Below are positions 15,680 to 33,054 of a DNA stretch of 64,000 nt, in pieces (the first letter of the stretch is position 1; the number at the start of each line of letters is the position of its first letter). Location: assembly GCA_965238175.1 (NCBI GenBank), contig CBDEGZ010000003.1, positions 960,001-1,024,000 on the forward strand, in the 5' to 3' direction. The notes beneath the pieces are model-generated. The model worked only from the letters and a program-made list of their open reading frames with translations. It made no database searches and was not told the DNA's origin. Both the position numbers and the translations under genes were made by a program. This stretch comes from Gammaproteobacteria bacterium. Its GTDB lineage: Bacteria > Pseudomonadota > Gammaproteobacteria > CAJXQU01.

Positions 15680-15978
15680 TATGCTTGAGAAGCGCGTTAA
15701 AGGTTTGAAGAAAACTAAGGTGCTGATGCAGGAAAAAATGGCAAATTGTCATCGTCCGGTGAGAGGGATAGCGAAACTTATAGAATCGCAATAGAATTCC
15801 TCGCAAAGCCTTATAAAATCTGGTTTTCCAAGTGACTAGAAGATAAGCGGAGAGTGCTAAAATTGGCTTTTGCAGACCGATTGACTTATGTGTGTGGGAA
15901 GGGTTATAGAACTGCAAAAACGATTTACCTTTCAAAGTGTTAAGGAAATATTTTACTCAAAAAGAAGTAATGGTGGGC
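15680..15978 (+). pseudogene. 3' relic of an older serine integrase homologous to 33389-34948
   Basis: Aligns with ~34615-34912 (LEKRVK..QEK.ANC.RPV; EFLAKPY; EDKR.VLKLAFADRLTYV; LPFKVL; QKEVMVG) with stops and frameshifts. Confidence 0.9.
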
Positions 15979-16077
15979 ATCGATGTGGAAACATCGAACC
16001 AACTTTTCGAGACTTTAGCAGAATGGGATGACTACTTACAACACCATGTTCCATACTTTCAGGAGCCACAACCATGA
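15970..16077 (+). other. Left att junction plus detached integrase C-terminal coding segment
   Basis: MVG|IDVETSNQLFETLAEWDDYLQHHVPYFQEPQP* is in the same frame as the integrase MVG; its stop overlaps the mobC ATG (ATGA). Confidence 0.75.
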
Positions 16078-16517
16078 GCGCCGTAGTCAATCAAAAGCTA
16101 CGGGCTACGACAGCATTTCAAGCAGTTTCCGGTAAACAAAACTCTCACCCCGGCAAACGTGCTGCTCCTTTTTCACTTCGACTGACAGCCGACGAAAGAG
16201 CCTACCTTGAACAATTAGCAGGTAATCGCTCTCTGAGCGCCTACATCCGAGAACAGTTATTGGGTGACAAGGTACATAAACGCCGTGTCTTAAGAAAACC
16301 CAAAATGGATGAGGCGCAATACGCTTCCTTACTGGCAGCATTAGGGCAATCCCATCTCTCATCCAACCTCAACCAATTGGCAAAACATGCCAACATGGGC
16401 ACACTGGATGTTTCAGAAGAAACGGAACGACAATTGGAGGAAGCGTATAAAACCATCTTGGTGGTGCGAGAAACCTTATTGATGGCCTTGGGTCTCAAAA
16501 CAGGAGATAGCACATGA
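16074..16517 (+). CDS. mobC: MobC-like relaxosome accessory protein (RHH)
   Basis: FSLRLTADER, SLSAYIRE, LSSNLNQLAKHAN; overlaps the relaxase start. Confidence 0.9.
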   Translation: MSAVVNQKLRATTAFQAVSGKQNSHPGKRAAPFSLRLTADERAYLEQLAGNRSLSAYIREQLLGDKVHKRRVLRKPKMDEAQYASLLAALGQSHLSSNLNQLAKHANMGTLDVSEETERQLEEAYKTILVVRETLLMALGLKTGDST

Positions 16518-17797
16518 ACCTGCAAGGCAGTCAACGCGGTGGCGCAAAAGACCTAGCATTGCATCTTCTCAAAGAAGAGAACGAACATGTTGAAGTGCAT
16601 GAGCTACGTGGGTTTGTGTCTGATGATTTAGTCTCTGCCCTCAACGAAACCCATGCAATTAGTCGTGGCACCAAAGCCAAACAATTCTTGTTTTCTCTTA
16701 GCCTGAACCCACCTCCAAAAGAAAACGTTTCAACAAAGACGTTTGAGGATGCGATACAACGGGTGGAAGACAAGCTAAACCTGACCAATCAACCCCGCGG
16801 CATTGTCTTTCATGAAAAACAGGGGCGTCGTCACGCACATGCGGTCTGGTCGCGCATTGATACAGAAACCATGAAAGCTATTCCGTTACCGCACACACGT
16901 TACAAACTCAGAGATATTTCCCGCGAGTTATATTTAGAAAATGGCTGGGATATGCCAAAGGGTTATCTGAATTCCAAAGAACGTGATCCTAAAAATTTTA
17001 CCCATGCTCAATGGCAGCAAGCCAAACGCTTGGGTAAAGACCCACGAGAAATAAAGGCTGCGTTTCAGGAGAGTTGGTCAATCAGTGATACTCAAAGCGC
17101 TTTTCAGCAGGCCTTGAAAGAACGGGGTTACGCATTGGCAAAAGGTGATAGACGCGGTTTTGTCGCCCTCGACCATCGCTGTGAAGTCTTCTCAGTCCCA
17201 AAGTGGACAGGCCTTAAAACCAAAGACATCAAAACCAAACTCACCGAGAAAGAAAATCTGCCTTCGGTTGATACTGCCAGAGCGCAGATTTCCAAGGAGA
17301 TGCAATCACGGTTAACGACATTGCAAAGGCAACAACACGAAGCAATTGAGGGACGTGTGAGTGAGATTGAGCAAAAGCGGGTGCCGTTGATGCAAGCTCA
17401 GCAAGCTGAACGCCTTCAACTTAAAGCATCTCAGCAAACTCGCTGGCAAGCTGAAACCTTGCAACGACAGGCGCGATTTAATAAAGGGCTACGAGGATTG
17501 TTTGATCATGTCACAGGTCAGCGCCGCCGTATCCAAGAACAAAATGAGCAGGAAACCTATGAATCCAGCGAGCGCGATAAACAAGAAAAAGACACGTTAA
17601 TCTTTACACAACTCAATCAGCGGCGAATGTTACAGAGCCGTATTGAACGCTTGCAAGATTTTAAGCAGCACCGGGTTGAATCACTCTCCCATGACATTAA
17701 GCAATACCAAGAAGTCAGAGAGAGAAAACGTGAAGTTGTCGATTTTAAAGAGCGAATGCAACAGCGCCGCCAACGAGGGCCTGAACGTGAGCGTTAA
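16514..17797 (+). CDS. Relaxase/mobilization nuclease (MOBP/VirD2-like)
   Basis: FSLSLNP, HEKQGRRHAHAVWSRID (3H motif), coiled-coil C-terminal half, basic tail. Confidence 0.9.
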   Translation: MNLQGSQRGGAKDLALHLLKEENEHVEVHELRGFVSDDLVSALNETHAISRGTKAKQFLFSLSLNPPPKENVSTKTFEDAIQRVEDKLNLTNQPRGIVFHEKQGRRHAHAVWSRIDTETMKAIPLPHTRYKLRDISRELYLENGWDMPKGYLNSKERDPKNFTHAQWQQAKRLGKDPREIKAAFQESWSISDTQSAFQQALKERGYALAKGDRRGFVALDHRCEVFSVPKWTGLKTKDIKTKLTEKENLPSVDTARAQISKEMQSRLTTLQRQQHEAIEGRVSEIEQKRVPLMQAQQAERLQLKASQQTRWQAETLQRQARFNKGLRGLFDHVTGQRRRIQEQNEQETYESSERDKQEKDTLIFTQLNQRRMLQSRIERLQDFKQHRVESLSHDIKQYQEVRERKREVVDFKERMQQRRQRGPERER

Positions 17798-17837
17798 GCC
17801 AATTTTATCCATCCCCTAATAACAGGGGATTAATCGC

Positions 17838-17880
17838 TTGACCTCTCACTTAGTAGCAACTATATTTACGATTGACGTAA
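17838..17880 (+). promoter_or_regulatory. higBA promoter and palindromic operator
   Basis: TTGACC-N17-TATATT followed by TTACG-ATTGA-CGTAA. Confidence 0.6.
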
Positions 17881-17905
17881 CACGTACTTTTTGGTAATAT
17901 AAAAG

Positions 17906-18181
17906 ATGATAATAGACTTTAAGTGCAGGAAAACCGAACGTCTGTTTAATGGTGAACATATCCCGGCGTTTTCCGGCTTTAAGCGACAGGCTGAAAAACG
18001 CCTTCGTATATTGGATGCGGCAGATACACTTGGGGCGTTGCAAGCCTTGCCGAGTAACCGTTTTGAATCCTTATCCGGTGATCGGGCAGGACAATACAGT
18101 ATCCGCGTTAATATGCAGTGGCGTGTTTGTTTTACATGGGACGAAGGTGCTCACGATGTAGAGATAGTGGATTACCACTAG
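17906..18181 (+). CDS. higB: HigB (RelE/ParE-family) toxin
   Basis: LSGDRAGQYSIRVNMQWRVCF, VEIVDYH. Confidence 0.92.
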   Translation: MIIDFKCRKTERLFNGEHIPAFSGFKRQAEKRLRILDAADTLGALQALPSNRFESLSGDRAGQYSIRVNMQWRVCFTWDEGAHDVEIVDYH

Positions 18182-18193
18182 ATAGAGAAATGA

Positions 18194-18505
18194 ATGGAGT
18201 TAATCATGGCTAGAGAAGCAATACACCCCGGCGAAATTCTGGCAGATGAGCTGGAAGAAATCGGAATTACAGCGGCGGAATTATCGCGTCAAATTGATGT
18301 GCCACCCAACCGTATATCACATATTGTTCGTGGTATGCGGGATGTTACGGCGGATACGGCGCTAAGGCTCGGTCAGTTTTTTGGGACGGGGCCGGAGCTT
18401 TGGATGAATCTGCAAAAAACCTATGAACTAGATAAGGCGAAAGCCGAGTTAGGTGCAACGATTAAGAAAATACATCGCTGGCAGCCTCAAGACATGCATG
18501 TTTAA
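18194..18505 (+). CDS. higA: HigA HTH antitoxin
   Basis: IHPGEIL, VTADTALRL, WMNLQ. Confidence 0.92.
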   Translation: MELIMAREAIHPGEILADELEEIGITAAELSRQIDVPPNRISHIVRGMRDVTADTALRLGQFFGTGPELWMNLQKTYELDKAKAELGATIKKIHRWQPQDMHV

Positions 18506-18529
18506 GACGGTAGATTAAGGTATTAAGTT

Positions 18530-18690
18530 ATGGCGACAATGAATATTTCCTTACCGAGCCTATGCGTAAATGGGTCGAGTCCAGAACCGATGATGGTCAA
18601 TATGCGAATAATAGCGATTATGTGCGTGACTTAATTCGTAAAGATATACAGCGAGCCGAGAAAATTCAGCAAGAACTGGATAGTGAGTAA
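18530..18690 (+). pseudogene. ParD-like RHH antitoxin, frameshifted and truncated, no toxin partner
   Basis: MATMNISLP / EPMRKWVE..GQYANNSDYVRDLIRKD; 1-nt deletion near codon 9. Confidence 0.75.
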
Positions 18691-18800
18691 TGGGTAGCAT
18701 ATAAGCAAAGTATTAATTTTTTCGGTAGAAGTTCAATTAGCTGCTAGAGACTACCAACAGTCCCCTGACAGATTGAGACATCAATAATTGGAGAATAACT

Positions 18801-19124
18801 ATGCCAGATTATCACAACTACTATGGTAGTGCAGAGGATCCCACTGAAAAGCACAAAGTTGAGTCTGGGGGAATTCGACGTTATACGAAGAGCAGTGTTT
18901 TCTTCGCTAGTTTTCAACGTTGGAAACCAGGTATTTTGTGGAGGTTCACACCAAATACTAGGCTTGTTGAGTTCACAAACAATTCAGGCAAAGGATGGGT
19001 AACTATGACAGGTTTAGATGGTCCTTCGGATAAACAAACATTCTATGCTTACCAGAACGTGAAAAGTCTGGAACAGGAGATAGCTAAACAAGGTGTGCTG
19101 AAAGAGCCCCGCTACCCAGAATAA
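18801..19124 (+). CDS. Hypothetical protein
   Basis: 107-aa ORF with a GGAG RBS. Confidence 0.6.
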   Translation: MPDYHNYYGSAEDPTEKHKVESGGIRRYTKSSVFFASFQRWKPGILWRFTPNTRLVEFTNNSGKGWVTMTGLDGPSDKQTFYAYQNVKSLEQEIAKQGVLKEPRYPE

Positions 19125-19368
19125 TGGGGCAAATAAACCGATGCTGCCTAACAAGTTCGGGCAACGCATTTCTCGTTTTGTCGTTATTCTCTATAAATAT
19201 CATTAATACATAGGTGAGTTTTCAATCAGTTCCCGCAGGCCATTAAGGAGCGGCCCAAGGTCATCACCCTCAATGATTTTTATTACTTCTTCTTCATGGT
19301 CGGCCAGTTCCGCAATTAACGTACCGTAGGCTTTCATATAAATCCGGTAGTGGTAGAGCGTTTTGGCA

Positions 19369-19959
19369 TTAACCGACATTTGCAAGCACTCCTTCCTCAC
19401 TCACCTGCGAAATAATCCGCGAGACAGTGCGCACAGATACATCAAACTGACTTGCAATTTGCGCCGGGGTTAAACCGGGTTGTTCTTGTAATAAACTTTG
19501 CGCATAAATTATTTCATCATCTGAAAGCTTACGCGGCCTGCCGATATGCACCCCGCGCTTTCGCGCCGCATCCATCCCGGCAATCGTGCGCTCACGTATC
19601 AAATTACGTTCCAGTTCAGAAAACGCATGACGCACTTGATACATGCACTTTCCCATCGGCGTAGTGGTATCAATCGCCTCAGTTAAACAGCGGAACTCAA
19701 CGCCGCGCCTTTCAAATTCTTCGAGCGTATCCAGTGCATTTTTTAATGAGCGAAAGGCCCTGTCCATTTTCCAGACCACCAACACATCACCTTCTTGCAA
19801 GCATGCTAACGCCTGTTCAAATCCGGGCCGGGTTTTGGCTATGGCCGAGACACCTTCATCTTCAAAGACAGGATGGCATCCGGCATCGAGTAAGGCATCA
19901 CGTTGTAAATCGAGATTTTGTTCTTGTGTGCTGACACGGGCGTAACCGATAACGGCCAT
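19369..19959 (-). CDS. Serine resolvase/invertase (Pin/TnpR family)
   Basis: IGYARVSTQEQN, VWKMDRAFRS, GRPRKL, C-terminal HTH. Confidence 0.95.
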   Translation of the reverse strand: MAVIGYARVSTQEQNLDLQRDALLDAGCHPVFEDEGVSAIAKTRPGFEQALACLQEGDVLVVWKMDRAFRSLKNALDTLEEFERRGVEFRCLTEAIDTTTPMGKCMYQVRHAFSELERNLIRERTIAGMDAARKRGVHIGRPRKLSDDEIIYAQSLLQEQPGLTPAQIASQFDVSVRTVSRIISQVSEEGVLANVG

Positions 19960-20010
19960 AGGTTTCTCCTACTTGTTTAATATCATTAACCCTTTGCGCC
20001 GAAGTATAGA

Positions 20011-20126
20011 CAAAAGGGAACCCTTTTGACTTATGCTCATAAACACCTCCTGTCAACCTAAAAACCCGCGCATTTAGCGGCATAAAACCCATGATTGTGA
20101 TTATGGCAAAAGGGTTCCCTTTTGCC
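20011..20126. promoter_or_regulatory. res-like palindrome pair upstream of the resolvase
   Basis: CAAAAGGGAACCCTTTTG (20011) and GGCAAAAGGGTTCCCTTTTGCC (20105). Confidence 0.55.
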
Positions 20127-20382
20127 GAACCTTAAGTGTATGAAAAACAATGTATATTTCGGTTTTTTGGTTGTGGTTTTTTTAGTTGTTTTATTCGTGT
20201 TTTCTTATAGGGCAGCATTCGCACAGGAGGAATTATTATCTGCAAAAAATGATTATATTACCTGCTGGAAGCAACCGTGTGTGTTGGTAGAAGGCAGTAT
20301 CTGGTCAGAAAAAAATCCCAATGGTGTGGCGGTTAGTGTGGCGATGGGCACAAAACCACTTATTCTACAACCAGCGCTTTAG
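20122..20382 (+). pseudogene. Probably truncated exported protein
   Basis: Signal peptide ending AAFAQ; collides tail-to-tail with the ORF on the opposite strand. Confidence 0.4.
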
Positions 20383-20950
20383 CATTATTCAAATTGTTCT
20401 GCTTCTGCGCCCACTGCGCATAATCACCATACTCTGGATGGTCTTTATATTCATTTTTAATGCTGCCATCGGGGTTAAGCATTTCGTTGATAAGATGTGC
20501 CTCTAACCGTTCACGGTAATCAGCCATACTCTCATCGGGATTACGCTGTGGGATTTCATCTTCATCCAATATTTGCAACGCCAATTTTTCCCGCCATTCT
20601 TCACCGTCACGCGCCTGAAACTTTTCTTCCAACGCTTTGATATCGGCTTCCATCCGCTGGAGAGAAGCGCGGACTTGCTCTATTAATTCGGTAATTTGCG
20701 CCGTTTGGCGTTCTTTGTTCTTGCGGGTTTTGGCCTGTTTGGATTGTACGCCGGTGGCCGCGCCACCGCGTTCAATCACACCATCAACCGAACCACCGGG
20801 CTGACCCAGCAGGATTTGGTTTTCTTTTTCGATGAATTCTTGGTGACGCAACGCGTTAAACTCTTCGTCCGACAGGCAGGTGTCACAGTGAATAAAAGTA
20901 TCGGTTAATCCGCCGGATAGTCGCAGAGTATCGGTAGTCGGTTTAACCAT
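20360..20950 (-). CDS. Hypothetical coiled-coil protein (possibly 3'-truncated)
   Basis: 196-aa ORF. Confidence 0.6.
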   Translation of the reverse strand: MVKPTTDTLRLSGGLTDTFIHCDTCLSDEEFNALRHQEFIEKENQILLGQPGGSVDGVIERGGAATGVQSKQAKTRKNKERQTAQITELIEQVRASLQRMEADIKALEEKFQARDGEEWREKLALQILDEDEIPQRNPDESMADYRERLEAHLINEMLNPDGSIKNEYKDHPEYGDYAQWAQKQNNLNNAKALVVE

Positions 20951-21190
20951 AGATCGCCCCGCTTGAAAGTCGGGTCGCCGAAAAACCGCGATATGCTACT
21001 GCATATCGAAGATTAAGAATAACGGCGTTATTCTTAATCACTGTTAAGCAAATATCAGACACACTACACCCCATTGTCCCTACCTCCCTGTGCTCTTAGT
21101 CATTATTATTCCCATAAATACTACCGGGAATTGATTAAAAAATACTTAATACAACTAAAATGGGAAGTGTGAAAAGTACGTAAAAATCGG

Positions 21191-21697
21191 TTACCGTTCG
21201 CGGTCTTTATCCCGGTTAGATTTTGTCCGTATTTTCTGCCGATGTTCACGTACCTGCTTATTCAGGGCTTTATCATCCCGGTCAATCACATTCAGGTTAC
21301 GGTTTCTTGCATTCTCCCGCACCTGTTCAATCGTGGTTTTAATCAAGCCTTGCGGTAAATAACCGTAGGCCAATTCACCAAATTGGGTTTTTCTCACATC
21401 CGGGCCTTGCCATGTAAAACGGTTCACTTCACGGGTGATGATCCAAGATTGATCATCATCTAGCTTTAGACGTTGTTTCGTGGCTAACGGAATTTCTTTA
21501 GCCTGAGTTAAGTCGTCAGGGGGTGTATGCGTAATCGGACAGATAAAGACTTCGGTTTCATCGAACTCATTCAAGCGTTTATGAACAATGACGCAAGGCC
21601 GGGCTTTACGTCCTTCCTCGTGTCCTCGTTGTTGTTCATCCCGCCAAAGATACAAATGACGGATAACCAAGCCTATTTCAGGGGTATCCTCCGCCAT
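21191..21697 (-). CDS. PemK/MazF-like toxin with an extended basic C-terminal tail
   Basis: YLWRDEQ..EEGRKARPCVIV, ICPITHTPP, SWIITREVNRF; downstream of a Phd antitoxin. Confidence 0.75.
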   Translation of the reverse strand: MAEDTPEIGLVIRHLYLWRDEQQRGHEEGRKARPCVIVHKRLNEFDETEVFICPITHTPPDDLTQAKEIPLATKQRLKLDDDQSWIITREVNRFTWQGPDVRKTQFGELAYGYLPQGLIKTTIEQVRENARNRNLNVIDRDDKALNKQVREHRQKIRTKSNRDKDRER

Positions 21698-21703
21698 TAC
21701 TGA

Positions 21704-21964
21704 TTATGAGGATTTATATTCGTGGTCGAATTGTTGGGTTTCTTTGGGAATGGGTAACGTACCTAATTCGTCGATAACCTCTTTGGGTAATTCGTTGGCA
21801 TAGAAGGTTTGTTGGTCAAGCTGGCGTAAGCGGCTGTACTCTTCTGCCGAAATCAGTGCTAAATCATCCCGCCCATGGTTGGTGATGATGACCGCCCCCT
21901 TATGGGCTTCGGTACGAAAGCGACCAAATTCCTTTTGGAATTCCGCTGATGTGATTTTGTTCAT
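21704..21964 (-). CDS. Phd/YefM-family antitoxin
   Basis: ITSAEFQKEFGRF..AVIITNHGR..LISAEEY. Confidence 0.88.
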   Translation of the reverse strand: MNKITSAEFQKEFGRFRTEAHKGAVIITNHGRDDLALISAEEYSRLRQLDQQTFYANELPKEVIDELGTLPIPKETQQFDHEYKSS

Positions 21965-22085
21965 GGTGATATCTCCTAATCCTATATCGGCATTAAATGC
22001 CTATTATTTATATTATCCGTAAAATATGGATTTTACAAGAAGAATATATTCCTACCTTTTTATGCCTGTCTGGAAGAGTTGTTCT

Positions 22086-22262
22086 TTATTCTGGCTGTCT
22101 ATCGGGAAACTGAGATAACTCAGTTTCCAACGCCTCAGACAGAGTGTTGCGTTCATCAACATTATCAAGGCTAAGTCCATCGTGTTGTTCAAGGATAGTC
22201 GAGATAATCTCGCGTAAACTTCGACTATTTTCTTTTTTATCTGTGTGTTTTTGATTTGGCAT
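22086..22262 (-). CDS. Small hypothetical protein (58 aa) downstream of ardA
   Basis: MPNQKHTD...DGLSLDNVDER with an AAGGA RBS; below the ORF-track cutoff. Confidence 0.45.
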   Translation of the reverse strand: MPNQKHTDKKENSRSLREIISTILEQHDGLSLDNVDERNTLSEALETELSQFPDRQPE

Positions 22263-22303
22263 TTTAGTATCCTTTGCGTTGTTGTTTTTGCCTCTTTTTC
22301 AGC

Positions 22304-22822
22304 CTAATGGCTCCAGAATATATGCGCTTCTTGACAGCCCGTTTCGATAGTGTAAATATCGCCGCCCATTTCCATGTCACGCCCCATGCGTTCATAGTCG
22401 ATATAGAACGCTAAATGTTCTGGAATATCGGTGGTGGTGTCTTCGGTGAGTTGCTGGGCGTAACCGGCCACACTTTCATATTCACCACTGTAATTTTCTT
22501 CTAAGGCTTTTCGGGCATCTTCGATGTCACCGCACCAATGATTTAAAACCGCTGCTCCCAACTCGCCGTGTTCTTCAATAAACAGGGCTTTATTGTTGGC
22601 ACTTTCCAATCCTTCATATTCTGAAAGTTCGACACCGCCAAATCCTTCGTAATCATGCAGCGAATATTCTTCTGCATCTTCAATAGGGCTGGCTTTCAGC
22701 ATGTCTCGGACAGCTTTCAAGATATCCTGTAAATCCTGCGTCGCATCAATCCATGCACCATGCAAAATACCGTTGTTGTAAGCGGCTAAATCTGCCACGT
22801 GAATTTTAGGTTCTATGTTCAT
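22304..22822 (-). CDS. ardA: Antirestriction protein ArdA
   Basis: IHVADLAAYNNGILHGAWID, EEYSLHDYEGF, YIDYERMGRDME; very acidic. Confidence 0.95.
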   Translation of the reverse strand: MNIEPKIHVADLAAYNNGILHGAWIDATQDLQDILKAVRDMLKASPIEDAEEYSLHDYEGFGGVELSEYEGLESANNKALFIEEHGELGAAVLNHWCGDIEDARKALEENYSGEYESVAGYAQQLTEDTTTDIPEHLAFYIDYERMGRDMEMGGDIYTIETGCQEAHIFWSH

Positions 22823-23191
22823 TGTCTTTTCTCCTAAATCGTTGCTGAGGTTTATGAAGCAGCTTTTGCGCTGCTCATGAACCTCTGGCGACTAGGCCGA
22901 CTAGCGGACGTGAGAATTCCAGAAAAATTGCGGAGTGTCTGCGCCTTTTGTGGCGTAGAAACCGTCATTATTCTTGAATTTGAGGGGAACAAGACCCCCT
23001 CTCTTTTGGGGCGTTGCGGGGTATCCCGCTAGAAAGGGGTGCCGGAAAACGCAGCTTTTGCTGCGGTTGAAGCAGGTGGAAGGCTTTCCCCCCCACAAAG
23101 CTATATTCATATTAAAAGACAGCTCTGCTATCGACTGCTATGATAAAGCGATGTATAAAAACGTGTTTATTGGTTAAATTAGAGAGTCCTG

Positions 23192-23974
23192 ATGGCAGAA
23201 ACACAAATCGAATGGACAGATGCGACGTGGAATCCAGTTGCAGGTTGCTCTCTCGCAAGTGCCGGTTGCAAACACTGCTACGCCATGCAAATGGCTAGAC
23301 GACTTGAGGCCATGGGGATCGACAAATACAAAGGACTTACTCAGAAGCGAGGCAAAAATGTCACATGGAATGGTATTGTTAAAGAAGATAAATCTTCTTT
23401 ATTAATTCCCTATACGTGGAAAAAACCGCGTAAAATTTTCGTAAATTCAATGAGCGACTTATTTCACGAAGATGTCAGTGAGGCATTTATTCTTTCTGTC
23501 TGGAAAGTGATGCGCGAAACACCACAGCATAATTATCAAATATTGACTAAGCGTCCAGAAAGAATGCATCAAATCGTCTCCAAGAAAATCAAAATAGTAC
23601 TGCCAAATGTTTGGTTAGGCACGAGTGTTGAAAACGCAGAAGTCACTGAACGAATAAACCACTTACGCAAGATTCCTGCTGCCATAAGGTTTATCTCCTT
23701 TGAGCCACTTATTGACTCTGTTGGTTCTGTTAATTTGAAGAATATTCACTGGGCGATTGTTGGTGGTGAAAGCGGCAACAAAGCCAGACCTATAAAAGAA
23801 GAATGGATTGATGAAATTCATGAACAGTGTGATCTCTACGATACGGCCTTCTTCTTTAAACAATGGGGTTCTTGGGGGAAAGACAATCAAAAACGATCTA
23901 AAAAAGCCAATGGCCGTGAATATAGGGGTAGAACGTGGGATGAAATGCCCATAACAGGTAATGTAGCAATGTAA
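23192..23974 (+). CDS. DUF5131 (phage Gp37/Gp68) three-Cys radical-SAM-like protein
   Basis: IEWTDATWNPVAGC..SAGCKHCYA, FVNSMSDLFHE, SFEPL, IVGGESG, FFFKQWG. Confidence 0.93.
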   Translation: MAETQIEWTDATWNPVAGCSLASAGCKHCYAMQMARRLEAMGIDKYKGLTQKRGKNVTWNGIVKEDKSSLLIPYTWKKPRKIFVNSMSDLFHEDVSEAFILSVWKVMRETPQHNYQILTKRPERMHQIVSKKIKIVLPNVWLGTSVENAEVTERINHLRKIPAAIRFISFEPLIDSVGSVNLKNIHWAIVGGESGNKARPIKEEWIDEIHEQCDLYDTAFFFKQWGSWGKDNQKRSKKANGREYRGRTWDEMPITGNVAM

Positions 23975-23993
23975 AACAGAGTGGTTTTGTTAC

Positions 23994-25247: not shown

Positions 25248-25472
25248 AAGGCCTTCTCACTTTATGCACGTGGGTATCCCTTCGCTATCTCACTAGAGCT
25301 TTACCTAGGGGGAGCACAGCAAATGCATGATGGCTAAGTGCAGGTGGAAAGGCATTTTTCCAAGCCCTGCGAGTGATTAAAACGGCGATACGTTTGACTG
25401 GAGCAATAGGCTCAATGCCTAATTTGCACCAGCGCTAGAGGTATCCAACAGGAGAACGCAGTGTCTCCTTTG

Positions 25473-25526
25473 GCAAGCGGCTTTGTACTACCATTTAGGA
25501 AAATGGTAGTACAAAGCACTGCTTGC
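25473..25526. promoter_or_regulatory. Candidate oriT (long inverted repeat)
   Basis: Perfect 17-bp arms GCTTTGTACTACCATTT-AGGA-AAATGGTAGTACAAAGC, extended by GCAAGC/GCTTGC. Confidence 0.5.
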
Positions 25527-25817
25527 GTGAAGCGACATGTGTAGTAGTCCCCGATACTTTGCGTTTAATGCTTATATCAGCTTCTGGAGTAAGCTAGCTA
25601 CCCATAGACGGCTATTATTGTTTGTAAACCCGATAATTACATGCTTGATTCTGGGGTATGACTGTATTCGAAGTTTAGGCCGATTGACCTTTCTTTTTAG
25701 CCGCTACTGAGTATGAAAATAGTTTCAACTCCATGGGATGTAACTGAAAAAAATGCCATCATTTATTACGCACCATTTGCTTATAAACAAATGGCAAAAC
25801 GAAAGAAGCGACTGTTC

Positions 25818-26027
25818 TTACAAGTAATAATCAGAAGGACTGCTTGTCTCGGCTTGGAACGATATGATTTCTTTATCTGCTTCCCAAGGAAGGCGCATTG
25901 ATTTTTTCAAAAATACAGTCTGATACTTTTTATCAGTTTCAAGCCCATTTTCAACAATCATCTCTATCGCTTTATCATGTATCTGAATCTTCCTACCAGA
26001 AGCTTTCTCCGTAAACTCTATCAACAT
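25818..26027 (-). CDS. Small hypothetical protein
   Basis: 69-aa ORF co-directional with the NTPase operon. Confidence 0.45.
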   Translation of the reverse strand: MLIEFTEKASGRKIQIHDKAIEMIVENGLETDKKYQTVFLKKSMRLPWEADKEIISFQAETSSPSDYYL

Positions 26028-26059
26028 TTCATACCTTTCTGACTTGAGAGTTTTTTTAG

Positions 26060-26521
26060 TTATGTCTTTGTTACCGAATCTTTTAGCTTTTGTATACCAT
26101 TATCTTTACCTTTTGCGTAATCATCGTCAAGAAGAGCATTTCTATCATTAATTTGTTTAAAAGTGTTCCAGAAAAACTTGTCTACTTCTTTTACAACCGC
26201 TCCATACTCCGCCTTGGTGACATGAGGCAACGTGGACAAGACGTCAAGATACGTGCTTCTAATCTGGTATTCGGAACGGCCATTTCCATTTCTCTCAAGT
26301 AGAGCATCAATATAATTTATAAGTGATAATAAAGAATTTTTAGCCAATAAATGCTGGTGCCTTTTTTCTCTACGCGAAATTAATATCTCAGCTTGATAGC
26401 TTGTAAAAAGCTGTAATAAAAGTGAAATGAAGACTCCAGCAAATAAGTAAACCATTCCATTGGGCATTGACTCCATTGTCATGGTAATGGCTTGTTTAAA
26501 ATCATTAATTAATGTGCACAT
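26060..26521 (-). CDS. Hypothetical single-TM protein
   Basis: N-terminal TM segment; starts 3 nt after the NTPase stop. Confidence 0.65.
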   Translation of the reverse strand: MCTLINDFKQAITMTMESMPNGMVYLFAGVFISLLLQLFTSYQAEILISRREKRHQHLLAKNSLLSLINYIDALLERNGNGRSEYQIRSTYLDVLSTLPHVTKAEYGAVVKEVDKFFWNTFKQINDRNALLDDDYAKGKDNGIQKLKDSVTKT

Positions 26522-26524
26522 TAA

Positions 26525-29053
26525 TTAGATACCATAAGCTACAGGGAAAATCTTACTAAAATAATTGTGAAAGCTCTTGTATTCGTTATATAACTCTTCC
26601 TGAGCTGGAAGCTCATCTTTTTTCACAGCGTAGTAGTAAACATCCTCAATAGATTTTTTAACAATCAAATCTGTATTAAATAGATTGCAATCAATGTTTG
26701 ATAAATCTCCCCATACGTTTACGTACTTTTTCATCTCCACCTCTTGCGCAGCTTTTAACAAACCCATAAAACGAACTACCTTTCGAAGTTTGTGCCCCAT
26801 GACTTTTACATAGCAGTGGGGGTAATCTTCTCTCACGAGATAAGAATAATTGAACATAGTTATGTATTGAAACGGTGCATATTCTAAGGACTGAGGGTTT
26901 TGATATAAATTAGGTAGCCCTAGTTCCTTATTCCGAATTTCAACTCTCGGTAATATACTTAGCCGATGAGTTTCAGGTGGGAGTGGCAATTTTGGGTCAT
27001 CAATTACTAATTGCGTATATAAAAAATCAGCCACCAAGGGCAGATCATCACTATTTGCATCTTCATGAAAAAGTTCCTTAGCTCTAGGCGTAAGCTCGAT
27101 ATTTTCATGGTCAAATTTCTGTTTCCTCAGGCTAGAGAGTCGTCTTTCTACCTGCAATAATCTTGGGCCTTGTTGAATGCGTTGAAGTCTGGTTATAGTC
27201 TTACAAAAACTTATGATATCGTAAAACCCATTAGGGTTGCCTTCACCACTTCTATTATTTGGGTAATCGCAAAAATGTTCTAACAACTCCTTCAACCTGA
27301 TCTTCCCGTTTGTTTTTAAAAAGTCCACAATCATTGGTATTAGCCAATAATCTGGTGTGCTTGGCCGTTCTTCATTGGTATAGGCTAAAAACACATTTGG
27401 GAAATGGGAGTTATGCTCTGAAAAACGAATTCTATGCCTAGAGGCTTGCACCATGATTGCAAGGTTTGGTTTCTTAAAAATCCTATTTTGCGCATTAACA
27501 TTTAGTTTATCGTGAGAAGAGTCCTGTTGCACCCATGAGAATGCTTTAAAAACTCTTATCGCGTCACGGAGGCCTGAGCCCGATAGTTTTACTATCCTAT
27601 CAATTGACTTTGCATGCCTATTATTCATTGCCTTTACTGAAACAGGATTTTTTTCATAGTCACTTAGTTTTTTTGCGAGATCACTTACGGTTTTTACTAG
27701 GGCATTGATTTGTTTGATATGGTTTATTACCTTATGGTTCTTTTCATCTTGTGAGTTTAGGGTATCAAAGGAATCGTTCAGAGCCTTTCTTAACTCACTC
27801 AAAGTGGCATTCATATCCAAAAAGGTATCGGGTAATTCAATAAGACTTTCATCGGTGGGTTTCTTATGATTGATCAGTTCACACTGCAATAAAAGTCGAC
27901 ATCCAATAGCTAGGTAATGTAAACGTTTGAGAATAATTAACTGTGCAGGTGCTTTTGAAGTTGAGTGAAGCGAGTATGTGTTTTCTGATGAAATTAGCTT
28001 ATCTCCACCACCTGCAGATATTGATGAAGAAAGTTGCTCTAGAAGACTATATGAATCTTTTCTAAGTATAATTAGTATCGCCCCACAAACCTTTGACCAA
28101 TTTCTATTTGATGAAAGAAGATTTCCTAAAACAGTTATAAACGAAAACAAGCACTTCTGTTTTTTGTCCTTGATTTTTGTCTTGCCATTTTTCACCGATA
28201 TAGTTTGTATTTCGTCATTCTCATGAAAAACAAAGTCAATATTATCTAAGATGATGATAACATTCCGCTTTGAGGCTCTTTTTAGATAGCCTAAGTACTC
28301 TATAGTCTCAACTTCTGCTTTATGTTCTTCTTTCTTCTGAACATACTTAAATATATTCTTCTCGTATGTTTCAAAGGCATCTTTATCATTTTCAGAAAAA
28401 AAGTTAACTTCTTTGTGAGTGGTTAAGCTCTCTCGTACTTGATTCACTTTTCTTACAACTTCAAGACAGAATTGATTCATATCGAAACCATCACGATAGA
28501 ATTGTTGTAGGTTTATTCTAATGAACCATATCTTATCGTTCTGAATCGAGTTTGCTATTAAATGTGACGACAGAATATAACTAAGAAATGATGACTTTCC
28601 AGAGCCAACATCACCGACTATGGAGAAAACTGAACTACGGCGATTAACTGAGCTTTTAATAAAAACCCTTTGAAAAAATTCGTCGATGGATTTTTCTGCA
28701 GACTCTTCTAATTGCGAGCCATGACTTTGCCCTTGCCCATGATGCACCATAGGCAAATCAAGAAGTTTTAGAATGTAATAATATCTTCTTAAAATATCAT
28801 TCCTTCCCCCCGAAGTTAAAAGGGCATCTTCAGGAATATTTTGAGGATTATCTAAAGCCTTTCCATTTAGAAGCCCACTGGCATCAAAACTTATAGCCTG
28901 TTCATCAAAAACAAATTGGAATAATTTATCTAGCTCATTATACCTTGCTCTAAAAGGACCCTCATCGTTATTAACCAATGGATTAACGGTTGATAAGCTG
29001 CCCTCATGTTCTGACGTACAATCACGATATGTAAACCAATTAGGATTTGTCAT
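26525..29053 (-). CDS. Large P-loop NTPase (STAND/AAA-like), function unknown
   Basis: Walker A GDVGSGKS, Walker B IIILDNID; AT-rich; 842 aa. Confidence 0.8.
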   Translation of the reverse strand: MTNPNWFTYRDCTSEHEGSLSTVNPLVNNDEGPFRARYNELDKLFQFVFDEQAISFDASGLLNGKALDNPQNIPEDALLTSGGRNDILRRYYYILKLLDLPMVHHGQGQSHGSQLEESAEKSIDEFFQRVFIKSSVNRRSSVFSIVGDVGSGKSSFLSYILSSHLIANSIQNDKIWFIRINLQQFYRDGFDMNQFCLEVVRKVNQVRESLTTHKEVNFFSENDKDAFETYEKNIFKYVQKKEEHKAEVETIEYLGYLKRASKRNVIIILDNIDFVFHENDEIQTISVKNGKTKIKDKKQKCLFSFITVLGNLLSSNRNWSKVCGAILIILRKDSYSLLEQLSSSISAGGGDKLISSENTYSLHSTSKAPAQLIILKRLHYLAIGCRLLLQCELINHKKPTDESLIELPDTFLDMNATLSELRKALNDSFDTLNSQDEKNHKVINHIKQINALVKTVSDLAKKLSDYEKNPVSVKAMNNRHAKSIDRIVKLSGSGLRDAIRVFKAFSWVQQDSSHDKLNVNAQNRIFKKPNLAIMVQASRHRIRFSEHNSHFPNVFLAYTNEERPSTPDYWLIPMIVDFLKTNGKIRLKELLEHFCDYPNNRSGEGNPNGFYDIISFCKTITRLQRIQQGPRLLQVERRLSSLRKQKFDHENIELTPRAKELFHEDANSDDLPLVADFLYTQLVIDDPKLPLPPETHRLSILPRVEIRNKELGLPNLYQNPQSLEYAPFQYITMFNYSYLVREDYPHCYVKVMGHKLRKVVRFMGLLKAAQEVEMKKYVNVWGDLSNIDCNLFNTDLIVKKSIEDVYYYAVKKDELPAQEELYNEYKSFHNYFSKIFPVAYGI

Positions 29054-29180
29054 AATTTTCTCAACTTGTATTTATATGTTTTTATATGAATTTCGTTGTG
29101 CTAATTTATGAATTCAAATATTTTGGTTTTTATTTTTCGATAGTTTAGAATAAAGTAAGAATCCACACTAAGCGTTATGC

Positions 29181-29789
29181 TTAGAAATCGCTGACAACAT
29201 CTAAGAAGGATTTGCTTTCGTTCAAGTCCAGAGGTTCTGCTTCGAGCTCTGATTTAAACAATAGAAATGCCTTTTCAGATAATTTATATATTATTTTCTC
29301 GTTCGAAATTTCAGTCAGGCCACTCTCTCTCCCCGCTGCCATTATCAGAGAAGCATAGCCGACGTAACTACCAAAAAAACGACTATTAATTCCATATGAT
29401 TGTTTGAATCGACCTTTTAGAATTTTCAAAAAAAAGAGCATTTGTGGTTTCACTTCAAGCATCGAATTGTTGACATCTTTTGGTGAAACCCTTCTCTCTT
29501 CATCGTAATTCCATGTACCCACCAAAAAGTGCCGTATAGTCGCAATTAATTTTTTCATTAAATCTGGCCTTTTTAGAGCTAACTGGCGATAGTTGAAAGT
29601 CTGTAACGCACGGCTTCCTAGTGCTTGGTAATATTTATGCACAGTTACCTTTGATACGAAAGTTTTCTTTGCGGTTTTGTCAGCCTCAACTCCTTCACAC
29701 CAATATTTTAGAACACTTAAAAACTTATCCTCACTCAGGTTAGAGTTTTTTACGAACTTATTTTTAGGTGTATAGAATTTACGCGGCAT
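29181..29789 (-). CDS. IS1595-transposase-derived protein lacking the DDE core
   Basis: N-terminus SNLSEDKF..LKYWCEG..ADKTA..VSKVTVHKYY..L..R and C-terminus LKGRFKQSYGI..FF...EPL resemble the two ends of IS1595 transposases. Confidence 0.55.
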   Translation of the reverse strand: MPRKFYTPKNKFVKNSNLSEDKFLSVLKYWCEGVEADKTAKKTFVSKVTVHKYYQALGSRALQTFNYRQLALKRPDLMKKLIATIRHFLVGTWNYDEERRVSPKDVNNSMLEVKPQMLFFLKILKGRFKQSYGINSRFFGSYVGYASLIMAAGRESGLTEISNEKIIYKLSEKAFLLFKSELEAEPLDLNESKSFLDVVSDF

Positions 29790-29904
29790 TCATTGATGGT
29801 ACAACAGTCTTTACTAGCTTTTCTATGGTTGCTGTCATTGTAAAAATATCCCCTATGATATGAAACCTCTTAAAAAAACACCGCAGAAGCGGTAAGAGGT
29901 ACAA

Positions 29905-30207
29905 ATGTTCAACAAATCCAAGTCCTCTAGTAATAAGGGGCAATCAACCGTCGAAAGTTCACTCTACGGGATGGCAAATATGCTGGCATTAATAGCTGCA
30001 TTTCTTGTCGCTCCGCAGATTTACGAGCATTCGGCAGATCCCGTCTATATGTATTTACTTAATTCCTACAGCGATCAAACACTGGCGGAATTAGGAATCT
30101 ACGTGTGGACATTCCTTGCAACCGCCTGTGTGTATTTTTTAAGCCGCGCCATCTTTGTATTGGCGCTCATGCTGATTGCACAGCGGCTGCTTGTTTTAGC
30201 ATTTTAA
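29905..30207 (+). CDS. Small multi-TM protein
   Basis: GAGG RBS; 2-3 hydrophobic segments. Confidence 0.7.
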   Translation: MFNKSKSSSNKGQSTVESSLYGMANMLALIAAFLVAPQIYEHSADPVYMYLLNSYSDQTLAELGIYVWTFLATACVYFLSRAIFVLALMLIAQRLLVLAF

Positions 30208-30225
30208 ATAAACAGGAGAAATATC

Positions 30226-30351
30226 ATGCCAAAAAAAGTATTAAGCAAACCAGTCGGTACTGTCCATAGAGTCGAATCCAAATGGACTTTTAGTGACTAT
30301 GTAATCGGTGCTGTCATTGTGTTTGTTTTAATCGCTGTCTTCTCTGGCTAA
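30226..30351 (+). CDS. 41-aa single-TM microprotein
   Basis: AGGAGA RBS; MPKKVLSKPVGTVHRVESKWTFSDYVIGAVIVFVLIAVFSG. Confidence 0.6.
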   Translation: MPKKVLSKPVGTVHRVESKWTFSDYVIGAVIVFVLIAVFSG

Positions 30352-30413
30352 TTAGCTAGCAAGACATTCATCCACCGCCCCGCTTCGGCGGGGCAACTTT
30401 CTGGATAAACATT

Positions 30414-32024
30414 ATGAACTACGAACAAGACCGTTTCGGCAGTGCCGGAGCCGTTTCAACCCATGCGTTGAAACACGCCAAGATTATTGGTGGTAAAGGC
30501 ATCAGTTTTGGTTTTGATGCCACCAAGCGTCATGAACTCCGTATTCCCACCGATGGCTCAACCGCCTTATTCGGTGGTGCAGGAAGTGGTAAAAGCGCAG
30601 GCCCCTTTGCCAATGCATTAATTGGTGGACATCTACCGGGTAATTTTATCTGTTTTGACCCACGCGGCGAACTCGCTGCTGTTAGCATGCTATCCCTATC
30701 GCTACAGGGTTATGAAATTTTTTACATTAACCACACCGGCATGTTGGGTTTACCCCAGCATCAAGTCAATCCACTCGACCATCTGAGAATTGATAGTCCA
30801 AGTTTAATTCCCGATGCCCAAAAATCGGCACTGGACTTTTGTCCTACCCCGGCGGGGATGCGAGCGAGTTGGGCCTTTGATGATGCGAGGCGTTGGCTTA
30901 CAGATTTATCACTCTATGATGCGGAACGTAATGGCTGTGCCAGCTTACCCGGTATCTATCAATTACTGCTTTCCTTACAAGGCGATTTAAACCAATGGTG
31001 CCAACATCTAGATCGGATGCTGCAATCACGCTTTGCAACCGTCCGTAGCTTTGCTAATGAGATTATGAGTTTGCAGCAAGAAGGCCGTGAGAGTTTTACC
31101 GCGCCTATGGGTGTGTTGCAAAATGCCTTTGCCTTTATGCGTGACCCACGTTTGCAACATACCTTCAGTGGTAATGACTTTTCTCTGCAATGGCTCACAG
31201 AGCCTAATCGCAAAATCGGAGTATTCGTCAATTGGCCTATTGAGTATATCGACACCCAAGCCCCGGCCATTCGGCAAGTGATTGGCTCGGCCATTCAAAA
31301 CAAACTACGTCAGCCGGGGAGTCAGCCTGTTAGTGTATTAATTGACGAAGCAGGTCAACTCAAAAACTTTCCTTCTGTGAGAGAACTTTTCACCTTTGGC
31401 CGAGGTGCAGGTCTTATCAGCAATATGGTGGCATGGCAGGAGATTTCTCAAATTCGTGCTGCTTTTGGCCCCCAAGCTGATGAGATTATTGGTTCAGCAC
31501 AGTTCAGAGTATTCAAGGGCGTACGTACGATGGACAGTGCCATGATGGTCTCACGTATGGCAGGCACCATGACGTTGGAATATGACGCTGTAAAAGAACA
31601 ATCCGATGCCCGGCGTCTAAAACAACAGGCCGCCCAACGGATGCTAACAGGTGGGAGTTTCTTTGAAGCGGCGGCGGATTTACGGCATTACAACGAGGCC
31701 GAAGAGCATCGCACCAAACAGGCCCGTCTAGTACTACAACCAGATGAAGTGCTGAACCTGCCACCCACTGCCATGGTCGCGTTTGCCTCCGGTTTGGTCG
31801 AAGGCCCAATTATTGGACATTGGATTAATCACTTTGAGCGTGCTGACTTTCCCGGAAAGTATCTCAACAACCCCTACCATGGAGAAGAGGTGCTACTTAA
31901 AACACGTTGGGGGTCAAAAAAGGCACGCATTATCGAAGAATCTGTTCCCGATGTCATGGCACATCTGCCGCAATACCAAAGCGGTACATGGCGATATGTG
32001 GAAGGCTATCGCCCAAAAATATGA
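30414..32024 (+). CDS. VirD4/TraG-like type IV coupling protein without an N-terminal TM domain
   Basis: FGSA at residues 8-11, Walker A GGAGSGKS, FDPRGEL, Walker B LIDEAGQL, ARLVLQPDEV. Confidence 0.88.
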   Translation: MNYEQDRFGSAGAVSTHALKHAKIIGGKGISFGFDATKRHELRIPTDGSTALFGGAGSGKSAGPFANALIGGHLPGNFICFDPRGELAAVSMLSLSLQGYEIFYINHTGMLGLPQHQVNPLDHLRIDSPSLIPDAQKSALDFCPTPAGMRASWAFDDARRWLTDLSLYDAERNGCASLPGIYQLLLSLQGDLNQWCQHLDRMLQSRFATVRSFANEIMSLQQEGRESFTAPMGVLQNAFAFMRDPRLQHTFSGNDFSLQWLTEPNRKIGVFVNWPIEYIDTQAPAIRQVIGSAIQNKLRQPGSQPVSVLIDEAGQLKNFPSVRELFTFGRGAGLISNMVAWQEISQIRAAFGPQADEIIGSAQFRVFKGVRTMDSAMMVSRMAGTMTLEYDAVKEQSDARRLKQQAAQRMLTGGSFFEAAADLRHYNEAEEHRTKQARLVLQPDEVLNLPPTAMVAFASGLVEGPIIGHWINHFERADFPGKYLNNPYHGEEVLLKTRWGSKKARIIEESVPDVMAHLPQYQSGTWRYVEGYRPKI

Positions 32025-32035
32025 GGTAATTATGA

Positions 32036-32578
32036 ATGATCACCAAAGACGAACTCAAAAGACTGGAACAACCGTCCCGGCAAAACAAAGAACTGCATTA
32101 TACGATTGGCGGCTCTGTAGAATCTGCCGTTCACTCAAATTTAGAGAGTGAGCGTATCAGCAAGCTTAATAAAGGCCACCGCATCATGAATAAGGCCGTT
32201 CAACAGTTTGAAAATAACATGGCCTTTAAATCACGCGAAGGACTGGCACACAGTCAGTTTCAGCAATTGGTGAATAGTGAACCACCGCCGCCAGACAGAA
32301 AGCTTGCTGAACAAACATGGCAGGATAATCATAAGGTGGCGCACCAAGAAACATTCGATAAAGCCCGCAAACAGTTTCGCTCTGCGATGCAACAGGCAAC
32401 CCAAGGTGAGCTTCCCATTATCGATACCGATTCAGGCTATGGTGCAGGTCAGGACAATACCACCGTTGAGAAATACGTTAACCATACCACTAAGGAACAA
32501 CAACCTGTCCGCAATGAACGGGTTAAGGCATTCGCACAAAATATGACGCAAGACCGCAGTCAAGGTTTAGAACGCTAA
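32036..32578 (+). CDS. Hypothetical protein with a relaxase-like C-terminal tail
   Basis: GAGG RBS; ends AFAQNMTQDRSQGLER. Confidence 0.7.
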   Translation: MITKDELKRLEQPSRQNKELHYTIGGSVESAVHSNLESERISKLNKGHRIMNKAVQQFENNMAFKSREGLAHSQFQQLVNSEPPPPDRKLAEQTWQDNHKVAHQETFDKARKQFRSAMQQATQGELPIIDTDSGYGAGQDNTTVEKYVNHTTKEQQPVRNERVKAFAQNMTQDRSQGLER

Positions 32579-32606
32579 TTTTTTACCAGCACACAGGAGA
32601 ACCATT

Positions 32607-32915
32607 ATGAGCAACGAGAATGAACAACACACAACCGTAATCAATTCACAGCAAGGTAATAGACCTATAGACACACTTTGGGATGGTTCTATTAAAGTCG
32701 CTATTTTTAAAAACCAACGGCAAAACGGTGTGTCATTTTCTGCTGAGGCAGGTCGGATTTATACCGATAGCCACGGTCAGACACAGGAAGCCAAAAGTTT
32801 TTCAGGTAGAGAATTACTTAGCGTGGCAAAACTTTCAGAAAAAGCCTATGACCGTATCGGCGAATTCAAGCAACAAATGAAATCTCAGCAACGAGGCACA
32901 GAGCGAGAACGCTAG
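32607..32915 (+). CDS. Putative ssDNA-binding (PC4/Whirly-like) protein with a relaxase-like tail
   Basis: PIDTLWDGSIKVAIFKN...RIYTD..G...KSFSGRELL; ends EFKQQMKSQQRGTERER. Fold call is inference. Confidence 0.55.
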   Translation: MSNENEQHTTVINSQQGNRPIDTLWDGSIKVAIFKNQRQNGVSFSAEAGRIYTDSHGQTQEAKSFSGRELLSVAKLSEKAYDRIGEFKQQMKSQQRGTERER

Positions 32916-32931
32916 ACAAAAAATAGAGATT

Positions 32932-32959
32932 GCCGTTGTGAATGCAACGGCTGTTTTTT
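32932..32959 (+). terminator. Rho-independent terminator of the T4CP operon
   Basis: GCCGTTG-N6-CAACGGC followed by TGTTTTTT. Confidence 0.75.
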
Positions 32960-32962
32960 GTA

Positions 32963-33005
32963 TTGCCAGATTTAAAAATATCGGTTAAATGTTCTCGTTA
33001 TGTTC
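32963..33005 (+). promoter_or_regulatory. Promoter of the integrase operon with an alphaproteobacterial LexA box
   Basis: TTGCCA...TTAAAT immediately followed by GTTC-TCGTTAT-GTTC (32991-33005). Confidence 0.6.
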
Positions 33006-33054
33006 TATTTAGAAAAGGAGAGAGCATTGATGTATTAATTCAAGACACGGAGGC

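Follow-up and report, generated by a model that had tools for sequence, protein, structure and literature searches.

The window analyzed here is a stretch of 64,000 nucleotides (positions 960,001 to 1,024,000 of contig CBDEGZ010000003.1, assembly GCA_965238175.1) from a gammaproteobacterium of the GTDB lineage CAJXQU01, whose 3.35 Mb genome is assembled in 3 contigs at 40% GC and is 97.7% complete. Positions ~15,980 to 34,981 of the window are an integrative mobilizable element of ~19 kb, referred to below as the island, which has its own relaxase (PF03432), coupling protein (PF02534) and integrase (PF00239 and PF13408) and is without mating-pore genes, since no mating-pore family was matched by Pfam among the island open reading frames (ORFs) scanned. 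An earlier note on this DNA had described a VirB-less element with a relaxase and a type IV coupling protein, and the domain assignments (PF03432; PF02534 and PF12696) bear this out. The note had further proposed that four island proteins share a C-terminal tail and are cotransferred with the DNA through a type IV secretion pore. The four ORFs and their endings, each running up to the stop codon, are exactly as claimed:

16514-17797, plus strand: MobA/VirD2-type relaxase of 427 amino acids (aa) (PF03432, E = 3.3e-16), ending in ...DFKERMQQRRQRGPERER, with the tail encoded at 17741-17794
21191-21697, minus strand: PemK/MazF-like toxin of 168 aa (PF02452, 27.6 bits against a cut-off of 23.1), ending in ...VREHRQKIRTKSNRDKDRER
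32036-32578, plus strand: 180-aa protein, family unassigned, ending in ...AFAQNMTQDRSQGLER, with the tail encoded at 32528-32575
32607-32915, plus strand: 102-aa protein, ending in ...EFKQQMKSQQRGTERER, with the tail encoded at 32862-32912

The relaxase, the 180-aa protein and the 102-aa protein have in common a bipartite tail anchored at the C-terminus, the parts of which are a short F-[K/A]-x-x-[M/R] element of helix-like character, a linker rich in Gln and Arg and a terminal G-x-(x)-[E/D]-R carboxy end; the 'F-x3-M' spelling is the local form of a broader F-x-x-x-[R/M] element. The PemK-like toxin has a C-terminal extension of ~25 residues, ending in ...RTKSNRDKDRER (encoded at 21194-21253), that harbors the basic linker and the ...DRER end of the tail only. 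The net charge of the last 20 residues, counted by hand, is +3 for the relaxase and the 102-aa protein, +1 for the 180-aa protein and +5 for the PemK-like toxin. The DNA beneath the tails uses differing codons and is followed and flanked by unrelated sequence, and a repeat search found nothing that links the four gene ends. These observations rule out a DNA repeat or attachment (att) site as the source of the likeness and indicate that it was selected at the protein level and not copied as repeated DNA. A 16-nt repeat (family D13) between the end of the 180-aa gene and a site inside the ArdA gene was read as chance.

Regular expressions run over the 7,996 ORFs of at least 60 aa in the whole genome revealed three matches to F...M.{5,12}ER$, all of them island proteins, and two matches to ERER$, both also in the island, while the four matches to [ED]RER$ comprised three island proteins and one small resolvase at C3:2013079. 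The absence of the tail from host genes, which the earlier note had reported for the window, extends to the genome for the first two of these patterns. A 212-aa protein ending in ...ER and the small resolvase, both near 2.00-2.01 Mb, lie among ordinary genes and were taken as chance matches. For a graded measure, 78 of 80 relaxases of other genomes (two truncated ones were dropped and the window was excluded) served to train an anchored matrix covering the C-terminal 12 residues, which was then scored on 3,345 non-overlapping ORFs of the genome. The relaxase ranked first with a score of 28.0, the 102-aa protein second (13.5), the 180-aa protein fifth (9.6) and the PemK-like toxin sixth (9.3); when all 7,996 ORFs were scored, the respective ranks were 1, 2, 7 and 8. 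At a score of at least 9, a threshold picked, like the matrix design itself, after the data were seen, 3 of the 24 non-relaxase island ORFs were recovered compared to 2 of 3,320 ORFs elsewhere (Fisher p = 3.2e-6), so the tail model does not pick up host ORFs at the rate at which it picks up those of the island. The two host proteins at comparable score are a DUF1289 protein encoded beside ArgRS and an unannotated 143-aa protein, and no mobile-element context was seen around either. We consider the tail to be real, beyond chance and conserved, and probably functional.

The relaxase belongs to a very large family, with 3,266 relatives (cluster representatives) at E <= 0.001, and in many full-length relatives the C-terminus is an Arg-rich run with G-P-x-[L/F/I]-[E/D]-R or near variants after it. 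In the related set of 80 relaxase loci from other genomes, an [ED]R end is found in 41 of the 78 training relaxases versus 17 of 3,345 host proteins, and 40 of the 80 relaxases in the greedy gene set of these loci end in ER or DR. The last 20 residues of the foreign relaxases carry a mean net charge of +3.1 versus +0.09 for host proteins. An upstream (E/A)-F-(K/M/R)-x-x-R element occurs in many relaxases; under a strict pattern, F-x-x-x-[R/M] was present in 17 of 78 relaxases versus 116 of 6,430 control ORFs and 47 of 3,345 host proteins. From this distribution we conclude that this relaxase family has long carried the tail. PF03432 is the only Pfam match in the island relaxase, and the 180-aa protein, the 102-aa protein and the tails gave none, in a library whose inclusion of the BID model was unconfirmed. 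A NikA/MobC-like homologue precedes the relaxase in all 80 related loci. The MobC-like protein of the window ends in ...KTGDST; in four Hyphomicrobium-type loci it ends in ...G(L/I)G(V/I)(R/K)ER, at a low matrix score:

L025:9547-9993, L027:9635-9994, L037:9596-9994 and L079:9451-9822: MobC-like proteins with the ER end

Conservation of the ending extends to the families of the other three proteins. All five close homologues of the 102-aa protein, each metagenomic, end in [ED]R, in the form ...(D/G/Q)-x-E-R with FKQQMK upstream, and F-[K/R/A]-x-x-[R/M] is present in 9 of 16 family members, one of them doubtful and likely a false match. Some elements carry two copies of the family, one basic-tailed and a second ending in ...EYRQAL. 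For the 180-aa protein, which has no match in Pfam, NCBIfam or PHROG and in the ESM Atlas gave leads below 0.9 only, to mobile-element DUFs, an [ED]R end occurs in 9 of 11 homologues, and five forms from which the middle of the protein is deleted still retain ...RVKAFAQxM...LER. Among the homologues of the PemK-like toxin, 22 of 108 end in [ED]R, including 19 of the 52 with a length of at least 155 aa, mostly as ...(K/G)DRER; these long forms back the match that the earlier note had called weaker. Short homologues stop after the toxin core, without the extension, a pattern by which the PemK tail is a conserved add-on in one branch of the family. With its toxin domain and an antitoxin gene directly upstream, the toxin would form a PemK/MazF type II toxin-antitoxin (TA) pair:

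21704-21964, minus strand: Phd/YefM-type antitoxin, partner of the PemK-like toxin (PF02604, E = 4e-9)

The earlier note had regarded the 102-aa protein as a putative SSB (a protein that binds single-stranded DNA), an assignment that found no support. The protein has no match in Pfam, among PDB sequences or in PHROG, and only unnamed clusters were found for it in the ESM Atlas. A structural model built from 17 sequences, with a predicted local distance difference test (pLDDT) value of 85.9, places strands at residues 22-26, 29-38, 41-53 and 59-62, followed by a long helix at 67-99 that runs into the tail; an earlier model from 6 sequences was poor (pLDDT 59.3). Foldseek returned nothing at E <= 0.001 for the model, the rows for SSB, PC4 and Pur-alpha standing at E 0.3-0.7, and a broader structural search (VIA) gave a top PDB Z score of 5.4, with YbaB/EbfC-like chains at Z 5.3-5.4, which is under the level that can be trusted. 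The protein may nonetheless have a DNA-handling role.

The tail also appears on further proteins of related elements. At a matrix score of at least 8, 20 of the 1,537 non-relaxase ORFs in the 80 loci were recovered. Five of them are proteins of ~100 aa encoded right after an anchor-less coupling protein (L025, L027, L037, L040 and L079), which end in ...GPRYER or ...DYDR with scores of 8.4-23.2 and for which hhalign detected no relationship with the 102-aa family. About four are small ORFs adjoining the relaxase or MobC gene, and two are Fic-domain toxins whose genes, each with a small ORF upstream, lie 1.0-1.2 kb downstream of that of the relaxase:

L006:12469-13128: Fic-domain protein, ending in ...SPRERER
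L010:12308-12979: Fic-domain protein, ending in ...GRDRER

In both of these loci a RadC-like or unannotated ORF lies between the relaxase and the Fic gene, an arrangement that parallels that of PemK in the window. Downstream of coupling proteins we find members of the 102-aa family, a 93-aa family ending in F-[D/E]-R-x-R and others ending in ...RDR or ...RER. Seven cases could be assigned to one locus (one of them, L007/L084, only to one genome, on separate contigs), and in all seven the relaxase shares an [ED]R end with the protein encoded downstream of the coupling protein. At L079 both have D, not E, at position -2; this covariation is suggestive, and it is one event.

The 180-aa and 102-aa genes lie in a module built around the coupling protein, the other genes of which are:

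29905-30207, plus strand: 100-aa membrane protein with two hydrophobic segments (hydropathy)
30414-32024, plus strand: VirD4/TraG-type coupling protein of 536 aa (PF02534, PF12696 and PF10412)
33055-33402, plus strand: 115-aa acidic protein, last gene of the coupling-protein module (conserved position)

The coupling protein matches PF02534 with 84.3 bits, PF12696 with 57.8 bits and PF10412 with 27.3 bits in Pfam, all NCBIfam models remain under cut-off, and its Walker A motif is found near residue 55. It is the sole coupling-protein match in the genome. An N-terminal transmembrane domain (TMD) was not found, there being no 19-residue window with a hydropathy of at least 1.6, and homologues align from query residues 1-8 in 23 of 25 coupling-protein matches; the protein therefore fits the 'no TMD' class and not the canonical form. 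Full-length relatives were found in 17 of the 40 genomes searched, at 25 places (40 of the 80 loci were searched). Homologues of the 100-aa membrane ORF (phmmer) occur in 8 of 80 relaxase loci and 6 of 25 coupling-protein loci and adjoin the coupling protein wherever it lies inside the fetched locus, and 9 of 25 loci have a homologue of the 115-aa protein encoded downstream of the coupling protein (phmmer). In the conserved order the membrane protein is followed by the coupling ATPase, by one or two small proteins with tails and by the ~115-aa acidic protein; the pair of membrane protein and ATPase is conserved in mobilizable elements of Alpha-, Beta- and Gammaproteobacteria. Judging by gene order, the 100-aa protein is likely a separate membrane anchor of the coupling ATPase. 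Loci with a two-part coupling protein are L021, L025, L027, L033, L036, L037, L040 and L079, together with L084, L085, L087, L092, L099 and L105.

Coupling proteins without a transmembrane domain are described in passages of PMC7431656 as pairing with a membrane protein, as TraJ does with TraI of pIP501 (class iii of Llosa and Alkorta). The island resembles TraJ-TraI as presented there in having a soluble coupling ATPase with an adjacent, separately encoded small membrane partner; it differs in that pIP501 is a Gram-positive plasmid, whereas the island-type pair, as assigned from gene order, is found in proteobacterial mobilizable elements. A second resemblance is to the class I mobilizable elements treated in parts of PMC5704250, which likewise have a relaxase and their own VirD4-type coupling protein, lack pore genes and depend on a helper pore. 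In the same source, however, elements with their own coupling protein are linked with MobC-class relaxases, while the island relaxase is of the MobA/VirD2 type (PF03432) and its coupling protein is without a membrane domain.

The remaining features of the island and its borders are:

15741-15980: attL-side remnant at the left end of the island, an ~80% identical copy of the 3' end of the serine-recombinase gene (repeat family D2 and pairwise alignment)
16074-16517, plus strand: NikA/MobC-like relaxosome accessory protein of 147 aa (PF21983, E = 2.7e-6)
17906-18505: HigB-like toxin and helix-turn-helix (HTH) antitoxin pair, directly after the relaxase (Pfam)
19369-19959: small resolvase (Pfam)
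within the island: ArdA gene (Pfam)
23192-25247: DUF5131 protein and adjacent GMT-wHTH protein, island cargo (Pfam)
26060-29789: 842-aa protein that resembles AAA_16 only weakly, together with a 153-aa and a 202-aa ORF, in a segment of 35-36% GC
33389-34948, plus strand: large serine recombinase (island integrase) of 519 aa (PF00239, PF13408), the 3' end of which overlaps tRNA-Met
34905-34981, minus strand: tRNA-Met (CAT), right border and integration target (ARAGORN)

The borders of the element are those suggested by tRNA-Met and the diverged repeat: the remnant at 15741-15980 matches 34673-34910, and the likeness ends at the position corresponding to the edge of tRNA-Met. The left-border copy of the recombinase 3' end suggests that an older element of the same kind may have occupied the site. 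In NCBIfam every match of the serine recombinase was under cut-off. The cargo at 23192-25247 and 26060-29789 is possibly a defense cassette, and the tail is absent from its DUF5131, GMT-wHTH, 842-aa, 153-aa and 202-aa proteins. A close homologue of the HigB/HTH pair is present in locus L061, near a tail-less member of the 102-aa family. Two 344-aa transposase ORFs (rve, HTH_29) flank the island region at 13240-14274 and 35203-36237; they are identical except for one silent base difference, seen on the opposite strand, and a third copy lies 1 Mb off at C3:2015540-2016574. Recombination between the flanking copies could relocate the entire island or remove it.

A charged C-terminal type IV signal common to a relaxase and its cotransferred proteins is already known. 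The Agrobacterium VirB/VirD4 substrates VirD2, VirE2, VirE3, VirF and VirD5 reportedly carry a positively charged C-terminal transport signal, as Vergunst et al. are said to have described in 2005, and one of the substrates is a DNA-coating protein encoded apart from the relaxase. The island tail shares with the Agrobacterium signal its extreme C-terminal position on unrelated proteins of one transfer system, the relaxase among them, as well as its shortness, Arg-richness and net positive charge; it differs in having a definable bipartite sequence and an acidic residue at -2, in belonging to a pore-less mobilizable island and in including TA toxins. We think with moderate confidence that the tail belongs with the VirB/VirD4 signals of Agrobacterium as a positively charged C-terminal signal, here in a sequence-defined bipartite form, that acts in docking as well as in translocation (export). 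A recruitment signal is the simplest account of a conserved, basic, carboxy-anchored tail that occurs on the relaxase, on proteins of the coupling operon and on TA toxins near transfer genes. In the steps that we infer for coupling-protein binding, export, the helper pore and function in the recipient, a VirD4-type coupling protein, either the island's own or that of a helper, would bind the tail; binding would bring the relaxase-DNA complex, the two small accessory proteins and the toxin to a borrowed type IV pore; and the tailed proteins would then pass, probably into the recipient.

Several observations weigh against this reading. The scores of the 180-aa protein and the PemK-like toxin are by themselves no better than those of the two host proteins, and support for these two tails therefore comes from conservation across their families. 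In the 102-aa family, the F element is missing from 7 of 16 members, and the ending of several is ...EYRQAL or similar, which is not basic. The matrix finds no tail on other island proteins with a plausible 'establishment' role, namely ArdA, HigB, the 115-aa protein (-10.9) and MobC (-15.4), and because these proteins are without it the tailed set is selective. An unanchored profile, for which 78 relaxase tails were aligned with MAFFT and the host proteome was searched by way of hmmbuild and hmmsearch, was uninformative, with a best E of 2.2 and no island protein, the relaxase included, among the 20 matches listed; the anchored model is needed because the tails are short, gapped and of low complexity. 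Approximately nine of the 20 high-scoring ORFs in related loci look Arg-rich and possibly spurious, in high-GC DNA. As to the pore, VirB4, TraC and AAA_10 have no above-cut-off match anywhere in the 97.7% complete genome, and the element is at present without a helper in its own genome; VirB4 was found in just one of five other genomes with the module (5 of 7 module loci). Lastly, the claim of the earlier note that the island's own coupling protein reads the tail is weakened by the lack of a significant association between [ED]R relaxase ends and this coupling-protein clade, such ends occurring in 11 of 17 genomes with it versus 10 of 23 without (p = 0.22; tabulated by hand, with 40 of the 80 loci searched). 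Since such ends are not enriched with the clade, helper coupling proteins may read the tail too.

A wider version of the signal reading can be put forward tentatively and with less confidence than the signal itself. The tail may be a portable label, read by coupling proteins, that would load a helper pore with the relaxase-DNA complex, small DNA-handling proteins and TA toxins (PemK here, Fic in relatives), so that the recipient might be 'addicted' or disarmed before the island genes are expressed; in Alpha-, Beta- and Gammaproteobacteria, unrelated proteins would have acquired it by repeated grafting. Precedents for the signal reading come from two kinds of system. The VbhT toxin carries a relaxase-derived signal, and parts of Harms et al. 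2017 (PMC5675462) give its movement together with a plasmid as demonstrated; the same passages hold that TA toxins have been recruited repeatedly and that more are to be expected via short positively charged signals. The BID signal of the Bartonella Beps, VbhT and rhizobial relaxases, as portrayed there, is like the island tail in being common to a relaxase and a TA toxin near transfer genes. It is unlike it in being a folded domain of ~100 residues plus a tail, whereas the island proteins share ~18-35 residues with no Pfam domain in the tails, and in its toxins, those with the island-type tail, whose transfer is a prediction, being PemK/MazF-like in the window and Fic in L006 and L010.

The second kind is the 'conjutome' of F-type and other conjugation systems. 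According to portions of PMC8406263, an F-type pore moves the SSB, ParA, ParB and PsiB encoded by the pED208 plasmid, and excerpts of PMC11288057 report that cloned positively charged C-termini generally carried Cre across. The likeness, so far as these portions go, lies in element-encoded maintenance and DNA-handling proteins being sent along with the DNA, which for the island is a proposal. In contrast to the heterogeneous signals of the self-transmissible plasmids described in them, which have no sequence definition, the island has one conserved tail, common to its relaxase, on a mobilizable element.

Of the competing explanations, the one that survives best is donor-only docking, in which the coupling complex would have the 102-aa and 180-aa proteins as permanent subunits, acting as adaptor, gate or regulator, that bind at the relaxase's site on the coupling protein and are not exported. 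The location of both genes inside the coupling-protein operon and the conservation of proteins at that position in many elements speak for it, as do small partners that bind coupling proteins via short terminal peptides, for example TraM-TraD in the parts of PMC8406263 concerned with them. However, the tail is also found on PemK and the Fic toxins, which are encoded apart from the coupling protein and have no obvious adaptor role, and it is strongest on the relaxase, the protein known to be exported in other systems; we judge donor-only docking unlikely.

Distinctly less probable is a basic nucleic-acid-binding or self-association segment that no coupling protein reads, the carriers having in common that all handle transferred DNA. 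The Arg/Gln-richness of the tails, the prolongation of the long helix by the tail in the model of the 102-aa protein and the weak best fold matches to small DNA-binding YbaB/EbfC-like proteins (Z 5.3-5.4) are consistent with it. Against this, the conserved part is fixed at [E/D]-R-COOH, for which a DNA-binding patch has no need, the tail is also present on the Fic and PemK enzymes, and the fold matches lie under the trusted level.

C-terminal tags govern the stability of many mobile-element proteins, and the tail could likewise be a turnover or regulatory tag, either a C-terminal degron or, in the toxin, a segment in contact with the antitoxin, that keeps the proteins scarce until transfer is induced. 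The absence of the PemK extension from short forms agrees with an add-on of this sort; no result indicates a protease or adaptor, however, and the distribution tracks relaxases and coupling-protein operons and not TA systems generally, the HigB of the island being tail-less, so we regard a turnover tag as very improbable. Chance or compositional likeness of short basic endings, to which the shortness and low complexity of the tails, the failure of the unanchored profile to separate them and the two similarly scoring host proteins would lend themselves, is scarcely credible in view of the genome-wide counts, the Fisher p of 3.2e-6, the conservation in four families and the recurrence in other elements.

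Returning to the tail as a type IV docking and translocation signal, four aspects appear to be new: that its bipartite form can be defined by sequence, that it extends through a very large relaxase family, that PemK and Fic toxins carry it and that it is linked with a two-part coupling module on pore-less islands. A full-text search, limited to the articles of one library, returned no description of the tail or of the coupling-protein module, and type IV signals are described only as charge or hydrophobicity classes in the relevant passages of PMC11288057 and PMC5675462.

Predicting the type IV signals of conjugation substrates is difficult, and the tail found here can be expressed as a sequence pattern. 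If it is indeed a label for coupling proteins, it would offer a direct and cheap means of listing which proteins accompany a widespread class of mobilizable islands, the proposal that TA toxins are injected during conjugation would become testable, and the receptor site could be mapped on a soluble coupling protein without a membrane domain. If the tail is a docking peptide only, it would define how the relaxosome is recognized by the two-part coupling-protein module.

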